Of a stretch of 44,700 bases of DNA, positions 7,084-39,716 are shown in pieces. Source of the DNA: Escherichia phage vb_EcoS_bov11C2. Below the pieces are notes generated by a model. The model did not search any database and was not told the origin of the DNA. It saw nothing but the letters and a program-made list of their open reading frames with translations. The stretch lies in the sequence record MT884012.2. One strand, written 5' to 3'. The first letter of the stretch is position 1; every line of letters begins with the position of its first letter. Position numbers and translations under genes: made by a program.

Positions 7084-7151
7084 GCGAGCGCGTAAAACTA
7101 AGGTAACATTAATGCCACTGGGCGAATGCTCACAACTCAAAGGATTTCGAT

Positions 7152-8252
7152 ATGTCTTTAACAGTGTTCCAGCGTAAACTCGTTACCGCGGTTACGCAAA
7201 TGATCCCCGACAACCTGAACGTTTTCAACGCCGCCGCCAATGGCGCTGTTGTTCTCGGTACTGGTGAAGTGCTGAAGGACGTTATTGAGAAAATGTCCGT
7301 AGGCTTGATCGCTAACCTCGTTACCGACCGTAACGCCTACGCCCCCGTCGGCACTCCGGCGACCGCGAAAGTGCTGGCGCGTATGCTAACCAACTCGGTT
7401 AACCTTTCCGCAAAAGTGGGTCCGGTAGCAATCACTAAGGCTATGATGGCTAAGATCGAAACCAACGTTAACAGCGTTGCGGCTGAGATTGCGGCACAGG
7501 CTACTCAAGCGATTATGCTGCACTACCTGAAAGCTGGTATCGGCGCAAGTAAAGCGGCGATCGAAAGCAACGCAGCGGCAAAATACACCCAACCGGCGCG
7601 CGTTGACGGCGTTGGCGGTCGTACCTTCCCGACCCTGGCAGACTTCCCGCTGGCGGCTTCTAAGTTCGGCGATCAGGCGTCTTTGATTAAGTCTTGGTTT
7701 ATGGACGGCGTTACCTGGGCAAACTTCATTGCGTACCAGGCACTCCCTTCCGCTGAACAGGTATTCGCAATTGGCGATCTCCAGGTAATGGGTGATGGCC
7801 TGGGCCGTCGCTTCATTATCTCCGATGCCGCTGCCGATGCTATTGGCGCTGGTAACATGCTGGGTCTGGTCCCTGGCGCGGTTGCAGTTACGACCAACGG
7901 CCTCGACATGCTGGCGCAGGAAAAAGGCGGCAACGAGAACATTGAGCGCTGGTGGCAGGGTGAGTTCGACTTCAACGTGGCTGTTAAAGGCTACCGTCTG
8001 AAGGCGTCCGCTCGTACCCCGATCGAAGGTGTACGCTCGTTCAAACTGGACGATATCACCACTTCCGATAACTGGGAACTGGATCAGGGCCAGGTAGACA
8101 ACGCACCGGCAACCGTGCAGGATGTTGGCGCTGTGGGCGATGGCGATACTAAAGGCCGTCGTAAGACCCAGGCCGCACAGGCAGTGCCTACCCGCCACAT
8201 CAAGGAAACCGCTGGCGTACTGGTTACGCTGACTGCGACTACCGCGTCTTAA
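7152..8252 (+). CDS. major capsid protein
   Basis: 366 aa ORF with RBS AAGGA, downstream of the scaffold, flanked by terminators; position and size typical of a major capsid protein. Confidence 0.75.
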   Translation: MSLTVFQRKLVTAVTQMIPDNLNVFNAAANGAVVLGTGEVLKDVIEKMSVGLIANLVTDRNAYAPVGTPATAKVLARMLTNSVNLSAKVGPVAITKAMMAKIETNVNSVAAEIAAQATQAIMLHYLKAGIGASKAAIESNAAAKYTQPARVDGVGGRTFPTLADFPLAASKFGDQASLIKSWFMDGVTWANFIAYQALPSAEQVFAIGDLQVMGDGLGRRFIISDAAADAIGAGNMLGLVPGAVAVTTNGLDMLAQEKGGNENIERWWQGEFDFNVAVKGYRLKASARTPIEGVRSFKLDDITTSDNWELDQGQVDNAPATVQDVGAVGDGDTKGRRKTQAAQAVPTRHIKETAGVLVTLTATTAS

Positions 8253-8270
8253 CGGGCGCACATCCCAAAT

Positions 8271-8295
8271 GGGCGGGCTTATGCCCGCCTTTTTT
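8271..8295 (+). terminator. intrinsic terminator after capsid gene
   Basis: GGCGGGC-ttat-GCCCGCC followed by TTTTTT. Confidence 0.7.
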
Positions 8296-8310
8296 ATAGG
8301 AGTGCATACA

Positions 8311-8811
8311 ATGTATGGCGACCCGCAAACCTTTGTTATTTATGCCGCTGCGCGAGGCGTTGAAATTACGCCGAGCGACGCAACGCGACACCTTACTATC
8401 GTTAATGACTTCCTTAACGGCATAGACTGGATCGGCGAACAAGCAGACCCGACCGGAATTGACGCATGGCCCCGCGTCAACTACCCGTCAGACGGTAAGC
8501 CGGTGCGAAACACGCTTACTGAAGATTTGGCAGTAGTTCCCGCGGGGCAGATTGTAGACTTCGCATCAATCCCTGTCGCCGTTGAGCAAGCCGTTTACCG
8601 GCTGGCAATGTTGGTGGCTGACGAGGTCGATATTTCTCCTGTTGGCAGTGGTAAGGAGACTATCCGCGAGACTGTTGGCCCGATCACGATGGAATATGAC
8701 CCCGCGACGATTGGTAGCGGCGTCTCGTTCCCGTGGTGGGATGGCTTGCTGGGCCACTGGGTGAACGTAGACGGCAACGCAGCGGGTAATTTTGACGTAT
8801 TCCGGGGGTGA
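8311..8811 (+). CDS. head-tail connector / head completion protein (putative)
   Basis: ATG 8311 with RBS AGGAG; first gene after the capsid terminator; functional call by position only. Confidence 0.4.
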   Translation: MYGDPQTFVIYAAARGVEITPSDATRHLTIVNDFLNGIDWIGEQADPTGIDAWPRVNYPSDGKPVRNTLTEDLAVVPAGQIVDFASIPVAVEQAVYRLAMLVADEVDISPVGSGKETIRETVGPITMEYDPATIGSGVSFPWWDGLLGHWVNVDGNAAGNFDVFRG

Positions 8812-8812
8812 T

Positions 8813-8983
8813 ATGAATCCTGCATTACTGGCGGCTATTATCGCCGCAAATACTAAGCACCAACCAGAACCAGAGCCGGAACCAGAACCAGAGCCGGAAC
8901 CAGAGCCGGAACCAGAACCAGAGCCGGAACCAGAACCAGAGCCGGAGCCACCGGTACAGGAGGATGCTAATGGCGGGCTTTAA
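8813..8983 (+). CDS. small protein with (Pro-Glu)14 repeat
   Basis: ATG 8813 with RBS GGGGGTGA; hydrophobic N-terminus MNPALLAAIIAANTKHQ then 14 consecutive PE dipeptides. Confidence 0.5.
   Translation: MNPALLAAIIAANTKHQPEPEPEPEPEPEPEPEPEPEPEPEPEPEPPVQEDANGGL
8864..8947. repeat. tandem repeat, 84 nt of CCA-GAA / CCA-GAG / CCG-GAA units
   Basis: 28 consecutive Pro/Glu codons; the 18-nt unit ccagaaccagagccggaa recurs about 4.5 times. Confidence 0.9.
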
Positions 8984-9323
8984 TTACGCAGGATTAAAGC
9001 GGAAAGTGAATCCGCTGATTAAAAAATTCGGCATGACCGTTACGGTTACGCGTCCGGGATCGGTTGACCGCGTAGATGGCGAAGAAGTGGTCATCCCGCC
9101 GACCTCGTTTGACGTCATCGGTCTTCGCGAGGAGTACAAGCCTAGCGAGATCGACGGAACGCGTATCGTTGCCGGTGATGTGAAGTTTTTATGTCGGGCG
9201 GTTGAGCAATTGCGGGTGGGCGACCTGGTTAACCTGAACGGCACTGACTACCGGGTCATCAACCCTAACCCACTGCAACCGGCGGGAACTACCATGCTGT
9301 TTCAACTACAGCTAAGGGGCTAA
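8970..9323 (+). CDS. head-tail joining protein (putative)
   Basis: ATG 8970 six nt after AGGAGG; 117 aa; located in the head-tail joining cluster. Confidence 0.45.
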   Translation: MAGFNYAGLKRKVNPLIKKFGMTVTVTRPGSVDRVDGEEVVIPPTSFDVIGLREEYKPSEIDGTRIVAGDVKFLCRAVEQLRVGDLVNLNGTDYRVINPNPLQPAGTTMLFQLQLRG

Positions 9324-9324
9324 C

Positions 9325-9918
9325 GTGGCTGAAGTCTACTCATTCGCCGCCACTATTGCTACGTGGGTGGATAAGACGAAGGAGAACAACGATAAGGCGG
9401 TGCGGGCGTACGGGATGCAAATACTCGGACGCCTTATTGAGATCTCCCCGGTGGGCGACCCTCGCCGGTGGAAAATTAACAGGGCTTACGCGCTGGCCCG
9501 CCAGCACGCGAACAAGGTGAACGCCGCGCAGCGCCGCAAGAATGGCGGCAAACTGAAGCGCGGGCAGAAGAAGCACGCCAGCGTGCTGGTATCATTCAAA
9601 ACTAAAAACGGCAACGTCACGTTCCGCCAGCGTGGCTGGGCTGCGAAGAATTACACCGGCGGACGCTTCCGGGGAAACTGGCAGGTTACGTTCGACCGAC
9701 CGGCGGTTGGCGCTATAGACCGCGTGGACAAGGCCGGAACGGCAACATTAGCCGCTGGGCGTGAAGTGCTGGCGCATTACGATTCCAGTGAATACGGGTC
9801 GATCTGGTTTACTAACAACGTGCCATACGCGCAGCGACTTGAGTATGGCTGGAGTAAACAAGCGCCCGCGGGGATTGTTCGCGTCGTAGCGGCAGAAATT
9901 AATTCGAAGGTGAAATAA
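9325..9918 (+). CDS. neck / tail completion protein (putative)
   Basis: GTG start after RBS AAGGGG, 197 aa, between head-joining genes and the major tail gene. Confidence 0.45.
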   Translation: MAEVYSFAATIATWVDKTKENNDKAVRAYGMQILGRLIEISPVGDPRRWKINRAYALARQHANKVNAAQRRKNGGKLKRGQKKHASVLVSFKTKNGNVTFRQRGWAAKNYTGGRFRGNWQVTFDRPAVGAIDRVDKAGTATLAAGREVLAHYDSSEYGSIWFTNNVPYAQRLEYGWSKQAPAGIVRVVAAEINSKVK

Positions 9919-10340
9919 TGAGCAATACCGCAATCCGCAAAGCGCTTAACAGCGTGGTTGAAGAGTTATCGGCAAGCCTGAGCACAAGCCAGCGTCCGAT
10001 TAGGGTTAACTGGGAGAACGTGAGCGGCGACCACGCAAACGGCAGCGGTGTCTACCTGGAGCCGTACCTGCTACCGGCCCCGACCCAGTTTGTGGGCTTA
10101 CAGCAGAAGGGTCGGATCTATGCTGGCGTATATCAGGTTGCCGTGGTGTTTCCCGCAGGAACTGGAACACAGTACGCGAGCGAACTGGCGGACGCCATCG
10201 CTACGTCTGATAAGTGGCTGGCGGTGAAGATTTCCGGTGCGTCATTTCAGCTTCAGGACGCGCCATACACCAGTTCAGTGATTGAAGACGTTGATCGCGC
10301 CCGCATCGTGGTTACAGTACCCTACACCTGTTGCGCCTGA
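9918..10340 (+). CDS. tail terminator / tail completion protein (putative)
   Basis: ATG overlapping the upstream stop (TAATGA), 140 aa, immediately upstream of the major tail gene. Confidence 0.45.
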   Translation: MSNTAIRKALNSVVEELSASLSTSQRPIRVNWENVSGDHANGSGVYLEPYLLPAPTQFVGLQQKGRIYAGVYQVAVVFPAGTGTQYASELADAIATSDKWLAVKISGASFQLQDAPYTSSVIEDVDRARIVVTVPYTCCA

Positions 10341-10401
10341 TTTGGCGCTATTCTGCGCGTGCTGTATCATTAAACCGTATATCTAAACAGGAGCGTTCAT
10401 T

Positions 10402-11127
10402 ATGGGTTATCAACTTCCTAACGGGTCTAGCGTCCAGATTGGGTCCGTACTGGGTAGCGGCATCGCTGTTACGGCAGCCACCAACGCCGCCGCGTCTATC
10501 TCCGACCTTACGCAAGGTTGCGTAATTACCTGTGCGTCTTCGCATGGTCTGGTTGTTGGCGACGTTGTTATGTTCACTAAAACCCCGTGGGTCCGAGCGC
10601 TTAACCGCGCATTCATCGTGGGTAAAGTGGACACCAACGACGTTACGCTGGCGCGCTTCGACACCGAAGACGTTACCAAGTATCCTACCGGAGCGTTTGG
10701 TGTAGGCACTCCGGGCGAAGTGGTGAAAGTGTCGAGCTTTATCGACTTCCCGTTTATCACTAACGTTGCCGTGTTGGGTGGTGACCAGCAGACTACTACC
10801 TTCCAGCCGTTGCAGGTGAACACCGCAATCAGTCTTAACACCACGAAAAACCCGTTGGTACAGACTTACACCTTCACCCACGACGAAGAAGACCCGATCC
10901 GCCCAATCCTGGAAGACCTGGACGACACACAGAAAACCACTGTGATTAAGTTTACGAACCCAGCGGCAGCAAGCGGCAAAGGTGAAATTCGTATTTACCC
11001 GGCTAAGGTATCTTTCCAGAAGATTCCGTCCGCTGAAGTAAACAACGTGGAAACGGTACAATCCACTCTGACCATGCAGTCAGATATGGTTATCTACCGC
11101 AAGGATCTGGTCGAGGCATTGTCTTGA
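10402..11127 (+). CDS. major tail protein
   Basis: 241 aa, strong RBS ACAGGAG, Thr/Val/Gly-rich beta-type composition, followed by terminator and the G/GT chaperone pair. Confidence 0.7.
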   Translation: MGYQLPNGSSVQIGSVLGSGIAVTAATNAAASISDLTQGCVITCASSHGLVVGDVVMFTKTPWVRALNRAFIVGKVDTNDVTLARFDTEDVTKYPTGAFGVGTPGEVVKVSSFIDFPFITNVAVLGGDQQTTTFQPLQVNTAISLNTTKNPLVQTYTFTHDEEDPIRPILEDLDDTQKTTVIKFTNPAAASGKGEIRIYPAKVSFQKIPSAEVNNVETVQSTLTMQSDMVIYRKDLVEALS

Positions 11128-11157
11128 TTTGGTCGCTTAAATAGCGAGTGATAATAT

Positions 11158-11180
11158 GGGGCCAGCACGGCCCCTTTTTT
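11158..11180 (+). terminator. intrinsic terminator after major tail gene
   Basis: GGGGCC-agcac-GGCCCC followed by TTTTTT. Confidence 0.7.
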
Positions 11181-11196
11181 ATTGGAGAATACTACA

Positions 11197-11559
11197 ATGG
11201 CTAAAGCACCACTCTTTACACTTGACCCTAAGCCGACCTTTAAGCTGCCGATTGAGATCCCGCGCCCTGGAGAGAACGAACCCGGCAAGATGACGTTTAC
11301 CGTACGCCACCGCCCGATCGACGAATTTTCGCAAACCATGCAGGACACCGAACGAAAGCTATCGGAATATGACGACAATGACCCGGACGGCTTTAACGTT
11401 ATGGTCGAGGCCATCATGCACGTCGCGGAAGGCTGGAATCTGCCAGACGAATTTAACGCGGAGAACGTCCGCCGCCTGGTGGTCAACTACCCACGCGCGT
11501 TCGGTGTGTTCCACACGTCGTACTATCTCGAACTGATGGGATTGCGTGAAAAAAACTAA
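11197..11559 (+). CDS. tail assembly chaperone (G-like)
   Basis: ATG 11197 with RBS GGAGA; 120 aa; ends 700 nt before tape measure; contains slippery heptamer A-AAA-AAC at its 3' end. Confidence 0.7.
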   Translation: MAKAPLFTLDPKPTFKLPIEIPRPGENEPGKMTFTVRHRPIDEFSQTMQDTERKLSEYDDNDPDGFNVMVEAIMHVAEGWNLPDEFNAENVRRLVVNYPRAFGVFHTSYYLELMGLREKN

Positions 11560-11873
11560 TTGAGGCGGCGCGACGCTTTTATGGCCCGCCGCCACCCTCC
11601 GAAGATTTAGCCGCAAGTTTATGGGGCGCGGCCCCCGAAGATGTTTGTCCGCCTGTTGCGCTATGGCCTGACAACGCGAAGATAGTCGCGGTCTTCACAG
11701 ATTGCGCCACGCAATGGCGCACCGGATTTGGTGGCGCATACGGCATCGACTACGGCGTGCTGGAGTGGTTATTTAAGATGCACGGTATCGAAAACGAACA
11801 GCGCGCGTTTAAAGATATCAAGCTAATGGAACGAATCGCGCTTGATGAGATGGCGCAGCAGAACCCCGCATAA
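11197..11873 (+). CDS. tail assembly chaperone GT fusion via programmed -1 frameshift
   Basis: Slippery A AAA AAC at 11550-11556 just before the G stop; the -1 frame from 11556 is open for 105 codons to TAA 11871-11873 with no ATG of its own. Confidence 0.6.
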
Positions 11874-11877
11874 TGAA

Positions 11878-12190
11878 GCGGGACAAAACGGGATGTCCCG
11901 TTTTGTCCCACCCCACAAATGTGCATATCTAATCACTTCCATTGCATAATCTAAAAGCGGGACAATCGGGACGTCCCGTTTTGTCCCACCCCACAAATGT
12001 GCATACCTATTCGGATTTCGTGCATAAACTAAGCGGGACAAAAAGCGGGACAAACAAGGTGCGGGACAAAGCGGGACAGCACCCCCGTCCCAGCCAGTGC
12101 TGCCGCGGTTTTTAGCCGATCGGGACAGGCGGGACAAACCCCAGTCTTTCAGACTAGACGGGGGTCAATGGCCCCCCTCGTCTGAGACTG
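11878..12190. repeat. GGGACA iteron/palindrome array R1
   Basis: At least 10 GGGACA copies plus inverted copies; 30-bp perfect palindrome at 11880-11909; second imperfect palindrome 11959-11987; 71-bp unit 12021-12091 and 52-bp hairpin unit 12139-12190 each with 1 mismatch to 39549-39716. Confidence 0.85.
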
Positions 12191-22415: not shown

Positions 22416-24032
22416 ATGGCAGCGGGTACTTTATCCGTAACGAATAACAGCAAGGCGGTTGTAGGGGTAGGCACAACGTTTACCGCGTTTAAAGCTGGCG
22501 ACTTCTTATCGCTGGTAGTGGGGCAAGTCCCTTACACTGTCGCTATTGCATCCGTAGAAAGCGACACGTCTCTTACGCTGGTGTTACCGTTCGACGGACC
22601 AACGGCAACCGGCCTAGCCTGGGACGGCGTTAAGCGCGATACCATGTCATTGGCAACGATGGGCGTTACCGTACAGGCACAAAAAGCATTGCGCTTGATG
22701 ATTGCAGATGAAAACAACTGGCGTGCAATCTTCGGCGACGCTGAAGAAATCACAGTGACGTTACCTAACGGGCAGGTTATGCAGGGCATGTCATGGGGCT
22801 ATCTGTCGCAGCTAATGAAGCAGATCGACCCTGTGGAGATGCGCAACCTGCAACAACAAGCAGCCGCATCGGAAGCAGCCGCGCAAGGATTTCGCAATGA
22901 GGCCGAAGGATTTCGCCATGAAGCCGAAGGATTCAAGGTGCAGAGCCTGGCAATCCTCAACAGCACGCAGGAGGTCCACGACGCCACCAGCACCATCAAG
23001 GACCAGACGAACCAGATCAAGACGGATACGCAGGCCATCAAGGACCAGACGAACCAGATCAAGACGGATACTGGCGTTATTCGAGATCAGGCCAATACAG
23101 CGAAGACGGACGCGCAAGCCGCCCGCGATGCCGCGCAGGGGTATCGGGATGAAGCCGAAGACTTCAAAAACGCGATCGACCCTACGCAATTCATGAAGAA
23201 GTCGCAGAACCTGGCAGACGTCGCAGATAAATCGTCGGCACGCGCTAATCTTGGTCTGGGGTCTGTAGCTACGGAGAACACCGTACCCATCGGGAAAGGC
23301 GGCACTGCGGCGACAACGGCAGCGGCAGCACGCGCTAATCTTGGCGTTGGTGATGATAGTAACGTTAAACACGCAACATTACGTCTGAATGGTGGGGAGT
23401 CATTAGTATTCGATGACGTCGAAAGAAACGGCTTAGTTCTGTCTAACGTATCGTATGGGATTGACAGTTGGGTAGGCTTCACCATGCACAAATGGTACGC
23501 CGACTGGGTGCGCGCAGGCATTGTTCGCGCTGCTAACACTCAAATGTCGGACTACCGGATTCATACGTGGAAGAACGGTGTTTCCGAGGCGCTATTCCGC
23601 TTCCTGCCGGACGGCAGGCTGATTCAGGGTAACAGCGGCAACCCTTCCGTAAATGAGTTTCAGAAAGCAGCGCTATCGGACCGCGACCTTAAAAAAGAAA
23701 TCCAATACACTGACGGCGAGGAAAGCTACAACCGCGTTCGTCAATGGCTTCCGGCAATGTTCAAGTATAAGGAGTCTGACGTACAGCGATACGGCCTTAT
23801 CGCACAGGACCTGGCAAGGATTGACCCAGAATATGTGCACTTGCTGCCGGGTTATGCCATTTATGAGGATATCAAGGGGGTGGACGAGGAAGGGAACGAA
23901 GTTGTAGTCGACCGAAAGGAGATCGGGTATACAGACGATGTGCTGTCGCTTGATAGTAACGTGTTGTTAATGGATCTGTGCGCCGCCTTCGTTCACCTGT
24001 TGCGGAAAGTGGAGAAGCTAGAAGGTAAATAA
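22416..24032 (+). CDS. side tail fibre with C-terminal self-cleaving chaperone domain (peptidase S74-like)
   Basis: ATG 22416 with RBS GAGGA; internal repeats (GFRNEAEGFRHEAEGFK; IKDQTNQIKTDT x2); C-terminal region with S-D-R-D-L-K (Ser...Lys at i+5) from 23676. Confidence 0.75.
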   Translation: MAAGTLSVTNNSKAVVGVGTTFTAFKAGDFLSLVVGQVPYTVAIASVESDTSLTLVLPFDGPTATGLAWDGVKRDTMSLATMGVTVQAQKALRLMIADENNWRAIFGDAEEITVTLPNGQVMQGMSWGYLSQLMKQIDPVEMRNLQQQAAASEAAAQGFRNEAEGFRHEAEGFKVQSLAILNSTQEVHDATSTIKDQTNQIKTDTQAIKDQTNQIKTDTGVIRDQANTAKTDAQAARDAAQGYRDEAEDFKNAIDPTQFMKKSQNLADVADKSSARANLGLGSVATENTVPIGKGGTAATTAAAARANLGVGDDSNVKHATLRLNGGESLVFDDVERNGLVLSNVSYGIDSWVGFTMHKWYADWVRAGIVRAANTQMSDYRIHTWKNGVSEALFRFLPDGRLIQGNSGNPSVNEFQKAALSDRDLKKEIQYTDGEESYNRVRQWLPAMFKYKESDVQRYGLIAQDLARIDPEYVHLLPGYAIYEDIKGVDEEGNEVVVDRKEIGYTDDVLSLDSNVLLMDLCAAFVHLLRKVEKLEGK

Positions 24033-32899: not shown

Positions 32900-33682
32900 T
32901 TAACGGCGGCGACGTTTACGTGGCGCTTCGTCTTCGTCGTCGTCCTCATCTTCGTCATCGCGTGGCTTACGACGTTTGCGAGGTTTTTCATCTTCCTCAT
33001 CGTCGTCGTCATCGCGGCGCTTGGATTTCTTGGACTTGCGCGGCTTGTCATCTTCATCATCGTCATCACGACGTTTTGACTTTTTGGACTTGCGCGGTGC
33101 TTCGTCTTCGTCGTCGTTGTCCAGGTCTTCGTCGGAACATGAAGACCCGCCACCTCCGAAGGCTTCGCCGTCTTCACGGAATCGCAGACCCAGCAAGCCA
33201 GCCCCGAGACCCTTGCCGTTGGTATTGTTCCACGCCCAGATATCAAGGGACACGTTGCAATAACAACCGGAGTAGATCTCCTGGCCTTCAATCTCGTCGC
33301 CGTCGATGGTCAGACCTTGTTCGGTCTGCTTCTCGCCGAGTGACGTTTGAATGATAGGCTGTTTGAACGATTTGGCGTTGATATACAACATGCCTTCGAA
33401 TTCTTCGGTCACTTCGTCACGCTCGTCACCGTCGCGGACTGCGCATTCCTTAGAATCCTGGGCGTAGTGGCGGTCCATCCACTTATCGGCATTCTTCTCG
33501 GATTTCAGCTTGTCGGTGAGCACTGCGCGCGCTGCCGCTTCCACTTTGTCCACCTGCGGATCTTCTTTATCCAGAAGAATCACGGCACGGTATGCCGGTT
33601 TTTGTCCATCCTGTTTAGGGGTATCACGTTCCCAGATTTTCAGGAAGCATACGCGCACATTTTTCAGGTTGACTTTAGCCAT
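32900..33682 (-). CDS. ssDNA-binding protein (T7 gp2.5-like / DUF2815-like) with mixed-charge repeat tail
   Basis: ATG 33682 with RBS GAGGAA; N-terminus MAKVNLKNVRVCF typical of this family from memory; C-terminal 90 aa of alternating PRKSKKSKRR and DDDDEDD blocks. Confidence 0.55.
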   Translation of the reverse strand: MAKVNLKNVRVCFLKIWERDTPKQDGQKPAYRAVILLDKEDPQVDKVEAAARAVLTDKLKSEKNADKWMDRHYAQDSKECAVRDGDERDEVTEEFEGMLYINAKSFKQPIIQTSLGEKQTEQGLTIDGDEIEGQEIYSGCYCNVSLDIWAWNNTNGKGLGAGLLGLRFREDGEAFGGGGSSCSDEDLDNDDEDEAPRKSKKSKRRDDDDEDDKPRKSKKSKRRDDDDDEEDEKPRKRRKPRDDEDEDDDEDEAPRKRRRR

Positions 33683-34015: not shown

Positions 34016-35438
34016 TACTTAAGTCCTCGTCGGTAGCTTCAGACCACGCAGGGCGCGGGTCGTCGATTGGTGCTAATACCGGTTTTGCCGGTGCGCGCGT
34101 GATTTTATCACACAACTTCGCCCACACTTTCGGCTTCTCGTCCTTCAATACCTTCTCGGCATCAGTAGGGCTGAGTAATGTTTCTTTGTACATAACATCG
34201 CGCTTGATCCGGGCCTTCGTGAAGATCTCAATCACTTCGCTCTCGTCCGCCCACTTGCGGATTCCTTCCTTACCGGCAACCATCTTGAGGCCCAGCGATT
34301 CGCCATCACCCGCCATTACGGCCTTGAACACCGCGGACTCGATAGCCTTGATGTGCTGGCGCATTGCGTCAAGACCTTCATATGCCTTGCGCAGTTCCGC
34401 CGCGCTCATAGCGCCGGGGGCCGCTTCTTTCTTGCCACGCTTCGCACGTCGTGCCGCTTTGCGGGCTTCGCGGGCCATATTGCGGTCGTGATTGGCGCAT
34501 TCTTCCTCTGTCGCAATACTCACGTCGTCGCCCAGGTCTTCGTCTGTTGCCGTTGGTTGGGTCATCGTGTCGATTGCGGCCTTAGCGCGGGCGCTACACT
34601 GATCCGCAAATCGGCACCACTGGCACGCATCAACGCTCGGTCGGAAGTCGGCACGGGTGAGTCCCTTTTTGCCGCGGGCGTACGCCTCCAGGGCGGCGAT
34701 AGCACGCTTGGACGCAAACTTCGCGAATATCTCCAGGGCTTCTACCGAAATATCCCACTCCGACGCCCCGCCGCAATACGGCTGGAAGATAACCAGGCGC
34801 ACGGTCGTGATGTCGTACATGGATTGCAGCTTGCGCAGCAGGCCGAGCGCATACAGCATAAGCTGTTTGTTTTCTTTCGCCTCGACCTTATGCCGCCCCG
34901 TCTTCAGGTCGCCAACAATCAGCATGTACGTGCCGTCGGTCTTCTTCATGACCATGACCATATCGGCAGTACCGAACGTCTTAACCCGGTTGCCGTCGAT
35001 CTCGAAGCCAGAGTGTAGGACGCGGGTCAGATCGGTGCGCATCTCAAGCTGGACAAACTCCGCCACTTCGAGGAGCGGTCGCCAGTGGTCGACGTATGCG
35101 TCGCACTGTTTCACCATATCGTCGTTGACCAGTACGCCGCCTTTCGGCGCTTTCGGGTGTGCCTTTACCGGTCCCTTTCCTTCGTTCTCGACGTAGCACC
35201 CTTTGTACGTCTTCGCGGTTATCAGCTTCTCACCGGCGATAATGCGGTTTAGCACCACCTCAGATACGGTGTGCATACTCGTACCGTTAATCGCGGCTTG
35301 CCCGGATTCGTTCGGGATATCTTTTTCCACCACCAGGGCGGCTGGGCAACCCATCCATTTTTTAGCTCCGGATGGGCCGAGTAAAGAGTGTTCCGTGTTG
35401 CTACCGGATTGCGTTTTACGTTTTGGTTTAATCGTCAT
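34008..35438 (-). CDS. PD-(D/E)XK exonuclease, Cas4/RecB-like with Fe-S cysteine motif
   Basis: GDLKTGRHKVEAKENKQLMLYALG (D ... E-x-K ... Q..Y) and C-x2-C-x5-C (CQWCRFADQC) plus an N-terminal Cys; 476 aa. Confidence 0.7.
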   Translation of the reverse strand: MTIKPKRKTQSGSNTEHSLLGPSGAKKWMGCPAALVVEKDIPNESGQAAINGTSMHTVSEVVLNRIIAGEKLITAKTYKGCYVENEGKGPVKAHPKAPKGGVLVNDDMVKQCDAYVDHWRPLLEVAEFVQLEMRTDLTRVLHSGFEIDGNRVKTFGTADMVMVMKKTDGTYMLIVGDLKTGRHKVEAKENKQLMLYALGLLRKLQSMYDITTVRLVIFQPYCGGASEWDISVEALEIFAKFASKRAIAALEAYARGKKGLTRADFRPSVDACQWCRFADQCSARAKAAIDTMTQPTATDEDLGDDVSIATEEECANHDRNMAREARKAARRAKRGKKEAAPGAMSAAELRKAYEGLDAMRQHIKAIESAVFKAVMAGDGESLGLKMVAGKEGIRKWADESEVIEIFTKARIKRDVMYKETLLSPTDAEKVLKDEKPKVWAKLCDKITRAPAKPVLAPIDDPRPAWSEATDEDLSNE

Positions 35439-35926: not shown

Positions 35927-36445
35927 TTAATCTTCCAGTTCGAAATAGGTTTCGACGATTTCTTTTAACTCTGTGTGGAAGTCTTCGACGTCGTCATCTT
36001 CCAGCTTGGCGATTGATTTGATCTCGAACGATTCCAGCAGGTCGTCGAATTCGTCGTTCGCGTCGTCGTCATCACCCCCGGCAATAATAGCGGCATACTG
36101 TTTGATCTCGTCGCGCATCTCTGCCAGCGGATCGGCATCTTTCTTACCTTTGCCTTTCGCCGGGGCTTTTTTACCCTTCGCAGGTTTTTCGTCTTCGGCT
36201 TCTTCATCGTCGTCATCTTCTACGACTTCTTTTTTGGACTTACCTTTCGCCGGGGCTTTTTTAGATTTAGCCGGTTTTTCGTCTTCGGCTTCATCGTCGC
36301 CATCTTCGACAACTTCTTTTTTCGCCTTAGACGGCTTCTTGTCTTCCTGTTTACCAACGGCAGCGCCAACGGTTTCATAATGCTTTGCAATGGTTTCCAG
36401 TGCTACTACGCCGCGAGTGATCAGGTTTACGATTTGCTCAAACAT
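35927..36445 (-). CDS. highly charged tandem-repeat protein, first gene of the leftward early operon
   Basis: ATG 36445 with RBS GGAG; two 29-aa tandem repeats (KKEVVEDGDDEAEDEKPAKSKKAPAKGKS) and acidic C-terminus. Confidence 0.5.
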   Translation of the reverse strand: MFEQIVNLITRGVVALETIAKHYETVGAAVGKQEDKKPSKAKKEVVEDGDDEAEDEKPAKSKKAPAKGKSKKEVVEDDDDEEAEDEKPAKGKKAPAKGKGKKDADPLAEMRDEIKQYAAIIAGGDDDDANDEFDDLLESFEIKSIAKLEDDDVEDFHTELKEIVETYFELED

Positions 36446-39453: not shown

Positions 39454-39548
39454 AATTTGCGCGCATTGGTTGCCGTTTTAAGTGTTTTTATCTGGTCGTA
39501 TTGGTTGCCGTGTAGTGTAGATATAATGAATAGTTATGCATTGAAACT

Positions 39549-39716
39549 GCATAAACTAAGCGGGACAAAAAGCGGGACAAACAAGGGGCGGGACAAAGCG
39601 GGACAGCACCCCCGTCCCGCCCCGGATGACGCGGCTTCCAGAGGAGCGGGACAGCGGGACAGCACCCCAGTCTTTCAGACTAGACGGGGGTCAACGGCCC
39701 CCCTCGTCTGAGACTG
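39549..39716. repeat. GGGACA iteron array R2 (copy of R1 units)
   Basis: 70-bp unit 39549-39618 and 52-bp hairpin unit 39665-39716 each differ by 1 nt from R1; six GGGACA copies. Confidence 0.85.

Follow-up and report, generated by a model that had tools for sequence, protein, structure and literature searches.

A small protein with a variable Pro-Glu tail encoded between the neck genes of Dhillonvirus phages: a conserved and translated gene whose repeat length drifts between isolates

Between the head-tail adaptor gene (Ad1) and the head closure, or stopper, gene (Hc1) of Escherichia phage vb_EcoS_bov11C2 lies a reading frame of 56 codons, whose product begins with a hydrophobic stretch and continues into fourteen consecutive Pro-Glu dipeptides. 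The question raised by this locus is whether so short and repetitive a frame is a gene at all, and, if it is, what a protein of this design may be doing at the head-tail junction. The window analyzed here is the whole stretch of 44,700 nucleotides (record MT884012.2), a complete 44.7-kb Dhillonvirus genome of an isolate from Hungarian cattle faeces (PMC8407724); the bovine isolates number five, with three farms of origin (PMC8967787). Translation of positions 8813–8983 (plus strand) yields MNPALLAAIIAANTKHQ(PE)14PPVQEDANGGL, a micro-protein with a net charge of about −15, for which AlphaFold2 run with the family alignment (mean pLDDT 79) predicts a helix at residues 3–14 followed by an extended chain, with no secondary structure beyond residue 14. 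Both the translation and the helix-plus-extended-tail model bear out the description given by an earlier sequence-only reading of this DNA, that of a 56-residue ORF in which a hydrophobic N-terminus leads into (PE)14. The run is the sole dipeptide repeat of four or more units in the six frames of the whole window, and the longest such run encountered across 50 shuffles was three units.

Table 1. Features of the micro-protein locus and its surroundings (positions in the window).
Feature	Position	Strand	Remarks
Terminator-like hairpin	8271..8290	+	Follows the capsid gene and bounds the neck-tail transcription unit on its upstream side
Head-tail adaptor Ad1	8311..8811	+	Pfam DnaT_2, E 6e-14; phrog_477, E 3e-36; upstream neighbor
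GGGGG Shine-Dalgarno-like run	8804..8808	+	4 nt upstream of the micro-protein ATG
Micro-protein gene	8813..8983	+	ATG 8813 to TAA 8983; 56 aa; phrog_11158 member
Codons 1–15, MNPALLAAIIAANTK	8813..8857	+	Conserved hydrophobic helix, proposed anchor
(PE)14 tandem repeat	8864..8947	+	TRF and codon layout, A[BCABC][BCABC]ABC'
AGGAGG Shine-Dalgarno for Hc1	8958..8963	+	Lies within the micro-protein gene, at its 3' end
Head closure (stopper) Hc1	8970..9323	+	phrog_161, E 1e-31; downstream neighbor
14-nt overlap of micro-protein gene end and Hc1 start (ATGGCGGGCTTTAA)	8970..8983	+	
Terminator-like hairpin	11158..11174	+	After the major tail gene

The frame is closely fitted to both of its neighbors (Table 1). 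The Ad1 stop codon TGA (8809–8811) stands a single nucleotide before the micro-protein ATG, a TGAnATG layout that suggests translational coupling between the two, and this arrangement is kept in the main Dhillonvirus group together with the GGGGGT that precedes the start, which in a divergent lineage (locus L017) is replaced by AGAGGT. At the opposite end, the Shine-Dalgarno sequence of Hc1 and the overlap with its start lie inside the micro-protein gene, so that conservation of the C-terminal ..QED.NGGL residues is partly imposed by the Hc1 signals; to judge from this layout, conservation of the N-terminus is, unlike that of the C-terminus, not imposed by them. The order of genes (scaffold, major capsid protein (PF20036), terminator-like hairpin, Ad1, micro-protein, Hc1, Neck1/tail completion, tail terminator, major tail protein and a second hairpin) confirms the assignment to a head-tail joining cluster made from the sequence at the outset, with Ad1 upstream and Hc1, Neck1, the tail terminator and the major tail protein downstream. 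Hc1 itself matches PDB chain 10lj_A ('Stopper protein gp12') with an E-value of 2.5e-69. Promoter- and terminator-like sites are absent between 8291 and 10341, so none flank the micro-protein gene. A moron, that is, an independently transcribed insert, was considered and rejected, since the frame lacks a promoter and terminator of its own and, from the layout of its start and stop signals, would be coupled to the genes on either side. A frameshift fusion of the micro-protein with Hc1 was likewise set aside: the repeat can be read through in the frame of Hc1, as the ZCEC12 annotation does, but no slippery site was seen, and every natural indel preserves the separate frame. The strong hairpin at 8271–8290 falls within a longer version of the adaptor ORF (beginning at ATG 8269), favoring the annotated Ad1 start at 8311.

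The micro-protein belongs, in expanded form, to a family of small proteins that has been catalogued but not characterized. The family profile, phrog_11158, has 38 positions and no assigned function; the micro-protein matches it with an E-value of 2e-21 (77 bits) over profile positions 1–28 and a second stretch, and its 38-aa relatives score 4e-27 against the same profile. Family members HK578_010, SSL-2009a gp12 and B2 ORF32 have an N-terminus identical to that of the source protein and share its synteny, the source ORF starting 1 nt past the Ad1 stop and lying between Ad1 and Hc1; the source copy differs from the family norm in its 14 rather than 3–5 PE units and 56 rather than 38–39 residues. 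An intact ORF in the same place and with the same N-terminus was found in every Dhillonvirus locus examined, these being 15 from IMG/VR, nine on metagenome contigs, 33 that represent clusters at 90% identity, and those of about ten GenBank records inspected base by base. A 17-mer scan of metagenome contigs returned 101 loci, nine of them with a family member (38 aa in all nine) and the others chance matches, and an exhaustive profile search over 1.84 billion representatives retrieved only the family itself and PE-rich noise, with no distant homologues hinting at a function. A 456-aa metagenome protein (P0036), scoring 60.7 bits over five stretches, contains five 'IEKLLAANTVSAPEPEPAPEPV' repeats that resemble the family junction 'IIAANTKRQPEPEPAPEPEPPV', probably a low-complexity coincidence. 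Within the first 15 codons, the main group displays nine synonymous third-position variants versus about five replacements, while a lineage with just 75% identity in Hc1 carries the N-terminus MNPAIIVAMLAALATKE, with conservative changes only, and a dN/dS of 0.06 was obtained for these codons between SM_A2 and a Logan contig. Judged by this pattern of substitutions, the N-terminus of the micro-protein is under purifying selection.

Direct evidence of expression comes from a relative. LC-MS/MS of purified vB_EcoS-B2 virions identified two unique peptides for ORF32, a protein of 38 aa (3990.7 Da, pI 3.76) encoded between ORF33 (Ad1) and ORF31 (Hc1) (PMC5945888), whose sequence MNPALLAAIIAANTKRQPEPEPAPEPEPPVQEDDNGGL, re-read from the B2 record, is that of an orthologue of the source ORF. 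An untranslated ORF, one of the grounds on which the sequence-only reading was prepared to be given up, is contradicted by these peptides, and the micro-protein gene is real, conserved and translated. The reported ORF32 coverage of 22.3% is at odds with the tryptic peptides expected. The B2 particles also contained DNA polymerase, scaffold protein and a phosphoesterase (PMC5945888), and because such non-virion proteins were present in the preparation, detection proves translation, not a structural role. In mass spectrometry of EE09 virion or lysate, 24 proteins were detected, with the 35-aa orthologue absent (PMC10673088). The protein may accordingly be viewed as a non-structural late product, either an assembly chaperone for Ad1/Hc1 or an acidic DNA- or protein-mimic, which merely co-purifies with particles and whose Pro/Glu tail is a disordered solubilizing or decoy segment. 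Both the EE09 result and the clearly non-virion proteins of the B2 particles speak for this explanation, as does a position between neck genes with coupling-type signals, which is what would be expected of an assembly factor. It also draws on the PDB, where near-identical Dhillonvirus chains exist for the capsid (9zys), the portal (10ec, 11cq), and the stopper (gp12), terminator (gp14) and tail tube (gp15) (10lj), whereas sequence searches returned no chain for the micro-protein family beside these solved components, and none for the adaptor. Its probability is nevertheless lowered by the finding of B2 orthologue peptides in purified particles, and further by two diverged alleles, described below, that carry a selected Ig-like domain of the pb10/Hoc type, leaving it a minority possibility. 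As to the PDB entries themselves, by their gp numbering the adaptor would be gp10 and the micro-protein gp11, and a search found no publication describing 9zys, 10ec, 11cq or 10lj.

Conserved and translated as it is, the small ORF is often missed or mis-called in sequence records. It is unannotated in MT884013.2, the GenBank record that matches the window, and annotated as a hypothetical protein in bov25_1D. In Teewinot and SM_A2 a reverse-strand ORF has been annotated across the repeat instead, and in ZCEC12 the annotation is of a 154-aa Hc1 that uses an upstream start and reads the repeat in another frame. The P-GXEC-L2P5 record (PQ843332.1) contains a 77-nt tandem duplication (354–534 of locus L139) that takes in the last part of Ad1 and codons 1–20 of the small ORF, resulting in a truncated copy, the only one seen, followed by an intact one; since this record is 88.6 kb long, or about two genome lengths, its assembly is suspect.

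The tail, in contrast to the helix, varies greatly in length, and the repeat itself suggests how. A TRF analysis describes the array both by a period of 18 nt (5.3 copies, 15% indels) and by a period of 30 nt (2.3 copies) with 100% identity over 8867–8934, so that an initial estimate of about 4.5 copies of an 18-nt unit was roughly right, while the perfect unit is one of 30 nt. This unit becomes apparent when the array is written in codon pairs (A = CCAGAA, B = CCAGAG, C = CCGGAA; Table 1), where the block BCABC occurs twice in tandem. A megablast search with region 7100–11200 returned 158 related records, nearly all of them Escherichia/Shigella phages of the genus Dhillonvirus (HK578-like), and the region is 100% identical over its full length in bov16_1 (MT884013.2, same coordinates), bov15_1 and bov22_1. 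The sister isolate bov25_1D differs from the window genome-wide by three SNPs (8524, 10775, 16935) and exactly one 30-nt repeat block, its array being (ABC)x3 and the window carrying the additional tandem BCABC; the paper on the isolates notes 'a gap of 30 or 89 bp' but does not discuss it (PMC8407724). Across the family the usual form has 38–39 aa and 3–5 PE-like units, and the Ig-free alleles extend from 32 aa in SM_A8 (18 nt lost), through 34–44 aa in the cluster representatives, 43 aa in ZCEC12 (CCAGTA three times, 6 nt x3), 46 aa in bov25_1D (nine PE) and 56 aa in the source phage, the longest Ig-free allele seen with one exception, to the 72 aa of Teewinot, where a native 27-nt segment (PAPEPEPPV) is present five times. 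SM_A2 has undergone a separate expansion, of 6 nt x17. All of these changes are multiples of three (6, 18, 27 or 30 nt) and leave the ORF intact. A phase-variable, on/off contingency locus was rejected as an explanation, since the observed changes alter length and not the reading frame.

Comparison of repeat length across related phages, which the sequence-only reading had proposed as a check, thus bears out its expectation that repeat number varies between isolates: there are 14 PE units as against nine in a sibling three SNPs away and mostly 3–5 elsewhere, with independent changes in other lineages, and the Ig-free proteins span 32 to 72 aa. Seen against the usual form of 3–5 units, (PE)14 is, on the evidence of these alignments, a recent expansion private to the source lineage, and it was probably near-neutral and produced by slippage. 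The expansion, which is in frame, would have arisen by slipped-strand mispairing or by unequal recombination between the 18- and 30-nt blocks. The same comparison indicates that tail length is under little constraint and drifts between isolates. The difference between nine and 14 units might be suspected of being an artefact of short-read assembly, as the genomes were assembled with SPAdes from 2x150-nt Illumina reads and their records have since been updated to version.2. However, the perfectly periodic stretch measures 68 nt and the full array 84 nt, both shorter than a read, and since a periodic stretch of 68 nt fits within 150-nt reads an assembly collapse is unlikely; three records agree on 14 units, and many other lengths were reported by independent laboratories, making an artefact very improbable. 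On the practical side, the phage has been put forward as a biocontrol agent against E. coli O157, and the repeat, as the sole length polymorphism between its near-identical field isolates, is useful as a cheap strain marker as well as a caution for genome comparison.

This variability bears directly on the stronger of the functional suggestions made at the outset, that the micro-protein acts as a molecular ruler or fixed-length spacer setting the distance across the head-tail joint. In favor of the idea are the known rods formed by X-Pro sequences, the extended chain modeled by AlphaFold2 and the location of the gene within the neck module. A ruler would be of fixed length, and yet the tail ranges from about two to at least 14 repeat units among phages with near-identical neck proteins: capsid-to-tail-tube regions that are approximately 93–100% identical in nucleotide sequence, with Hc1 proteins mostly 87–100% identical, encode micro-proteins of differing length. 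Siblings separated by three SNPs differ by 10 residues, and homologous necks exist that have no micro-protein gene, as in other genera with Hc1 proteins 31–38% identical (Aeromonas pAEv1818, Stenotrophomonas AXL_1, HK639, Rogue1), where Ad1 directly abuts Hc1 and no ORF lies between them. With lengths of 32–72 aa (122–147 aa when an Ig domain is included) alongside neck proteins that are about 90% or more identical, and with the gene absent in related genera, the ruler is not supported, and we regard it as very improbable.

Further insight into what the tail may do is provided by two rare alleles in which it is joined by an additional domain. At the same locus in SM_A2 (PP920552.1), a protein of 147 aa consists of the family N-terminus, some 90 residues of inserted sequence, and then an unbroken run of about 17 PE units, and in the Logan contig SRR10023924_189 a protein of 122 aa (P0034), located between Ad1 and Hc1, also begins with the family N-terminus. 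The insert matches Pfam Ig_3 in SM_A2 (E 2e-6), and P0034 has a precomputed PF13927 assignment. Identity of 40% was found between the Ig insert and both the 'Hoc-like head decoration' proteins of T5-like phages and the Ig domain at the C-terminus of the HK97 major tail subunit, and when searched against the PDB the P0034 domain retrieves 'Decoration protein' 8zvi (E 1e-14) and 5lxk (E 6e-13) as well as Hoc 3shs (E 4e-4). A single-sequence AlphaFold2 model of P0034 reached a pLDDT of only 48 and was unusable, so the Ig assignment here is one of sequence. The two proteins are 67% identical, and within the Ig region pN is 0.22 per site versus a pS saturated at 0.78, indicating that the domain is maintained by selection. 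Ig-like domains in phages are reportedly found almost exclusively on exposed virion proteins. In P0034 the layout is ..KRPPEPVPD-[Ig]-EPEPEEDENGGL, placing the Ig domain inside the Pro/Glu segment, and removal of the domain leaves almost exactly the 38-aa form; in both alleles part of the Pro/Glu segment is distal to the domain as a C-terminal tail. Since in SM_A2 this distal part comprises the entire (PE) run, the run cannot be read simply as a stalk that keeps the domain off its anchor, while the insertion of the domain inside the Pro/Glu segment of both alleles suggests that the segment acts as a linker. The spacer envisaged at the outset is therefore plausible in the form of a tolerant linker, and not as one of fixed length. 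SM_A2 additionally contains a 111-nt tandem duplication (at about 688–909 of locus L140), in which Hc1 codons 1–9 and the ribosome-binding site of Hc1 are included along with the PE repeat. The duplication, whether genuine or produced in assembly, keeps to the Hc1 frame, so that an Hc1 with a longer N-terminus, MAGFNYAGL(SQ)n.., could result.

The explanation we prefer, with a probability of about one half, is that of a genus-specific accessory virion protein, consisting of a helical anchor, probably docked at the level of the neck adaptor, and an exposed acidic Pro/Glu stalk of unconstrained length that occasionally bears an Ig-like module. According to this proposal, a late gene that occurs in Dhillonvirus alone, and whose start and stop signals are laid out for its translation to be coupled with that of the neck genes, would supply a protein whose hydrophobic N-terminal helix of 12–15 residues docks it onto a virion component. 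The most likely docking site would be at the adaptor level because of the position of the gene and its coupling. The strongly acidic Pro/Glu tail would remain extended and solvent-exposed, serving as linker or bristle, and in rare alleles would present an Ig-like domain of the pb10/Hoc type. Where the protein docks, its position on the virion surface and whatever advantage the acidic stalk may bring are inferred. A more ambitious version sees in the family a new class of minimal virion 'display stalks', with multiple anchor helices arrayed around the adaptor/connector, a rod tuned by slippage (a contingency locus varying in length instead of switching on and off) and swappable modules such as Ig-like domains, by which surface charge, adhesion or recognition by defence systems would be altered between isolates; this is distinctly improbable.

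The accessory virion protein has also to be weighed against a far more modest origin, according to which the gene is a vestigial or nearly neutral stub, a remnant of an Ig decoration gene or a minimal coupling ORF, kept for the Hc1 ribosome-binding site and for Ad1–Hc1 coupling, with a repeat that is freely slipping junk. Such a stub would be in keeping with an unconstrained length of 32 to 72 aa, with a gene missing from related genera, with C-terminal conservation explained by the embedded Hc1 Shine-Dalgarno sequence and start codon, and with the fact that P0034 stripped of its Ig domain approximates the 38-aa form. It is less easily reconciled with first 15 codons that vary mostly synonymously, with conservative replacements across lineages, or with length changes that are all in frame and disrupt no allele, the sole truncated copy (in P-GXEC-L2P5) lying beside an intact one. 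We thus consider the stub unlikely, to a degree similar to that of the non-structural protein. If the anchor helix of the accessory protein does dock on the virion, its 15-residue tag followed by a tolerant linker would constitute a natural site for the display of foreign domains on Dhillonviruses, and in the Ig-like alleles nature appears to have performed such domain display already. The biology is modest, and overturns nothing known about head-tail joining; the parts most worthy of follow-up are the Ig-bearing alleles and the anchor-plus-linker design.

Repeats of other kinds were observed elsewhere in the genome. Two intergenic regions (11870–12145 and 39540–39670), one of them just upstream of the tape-measure gene, share a module, some 75 nt long, in which GCGGGACA(A) words abound and parts of which form GGGAC..GTCCC hairpins. 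The word AAGCGGGACAAA, allowing up to one mismatch, has eight matches versus 0.25 expected, seven of them in these two regions and one outside, at 35046, and from its sequence the module looks like a phage-specific regulatory or promoter element. Coding repeats include a 54-nt repeat (32992–33117) that gives the protein of 32900–33682 (minus strand) a C-terminal (DDDDE..PRKSKKSKRR)x3, a 90-nt repeat (36153–36329) encoding two copies of a 30-aa Lys/Glu/Asp-rich unit in the protein of 35927–36445 (minus strand), and 21-nt (7-aa) repeats of the IKDQTNQ / IKTDT type at 22885–23063, in a hypothetical protein of 539 aa (ORF ~22416–24032, plus strand) that adjoins the tail genes.

Several known systems invite comparison with the micro-protein. 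Runs of X-Pro form extended, polyproline-II-like rods in TonB and procyclin, and the (EP)n(KP)n spacer of TonB shares with the micro-protein an alternation of Glu and Pro from which a stiff, extended chain is expected. Unlike TonB, however, the micro-protein is hydrophobic only from P3 to A12 or T14, too short for a membrane span (some 20 residues in TonB), and it has no (KP)n half, no TonB C-terminal domain and no match to TonB in Pfam. The analogy with the TonB linker drawn by the sequence-only reading is consequently one of composition alone, as membrane helix, (KP)n and C-terminal domain are all absent. The (EP)n acidic rod of trypanosome procyclin (PARP, PF05887) bears a similar likeness; homology to the Pfam Trypan_PARP family was rejected as compositional, the score being 27.3 bits versus a cut-off of 100 with the repeat alone aligned. 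Ksap1, a small Dhillonvirus protein sensed by KpAvs2, was examined as a candidate and found to be a different gene, of 74 aa, located between methyltransferase and phosphatase genes. Accessory and dispensable structures that project outward from the head-tail junction are known in the whiskers of T4 fibritin and in the neck passage structure of TP901-1/Tuc2009, both of them large trimeric fibres, in comparison with which the micro-protein is small (4–6 kDa), with no fold beyond one helix, and homology to them is not expected. A parallel in design is offered by T5 pb10 and the Hoc proteins of T4 and RB49, in which an anchor and a linker carry an exposed Ig-like domain. The 56-aa source protein differs from these in having no Ig domain, and the family as a whole in a putative anchor that is a single short helix rather than a folded capsid-binding domain, and in a gene located among those of the neck; the rare alleles, nonetheless, share with pb10 and Hoc the complete succession of anchor, Pro-rich linker and Ig domain.
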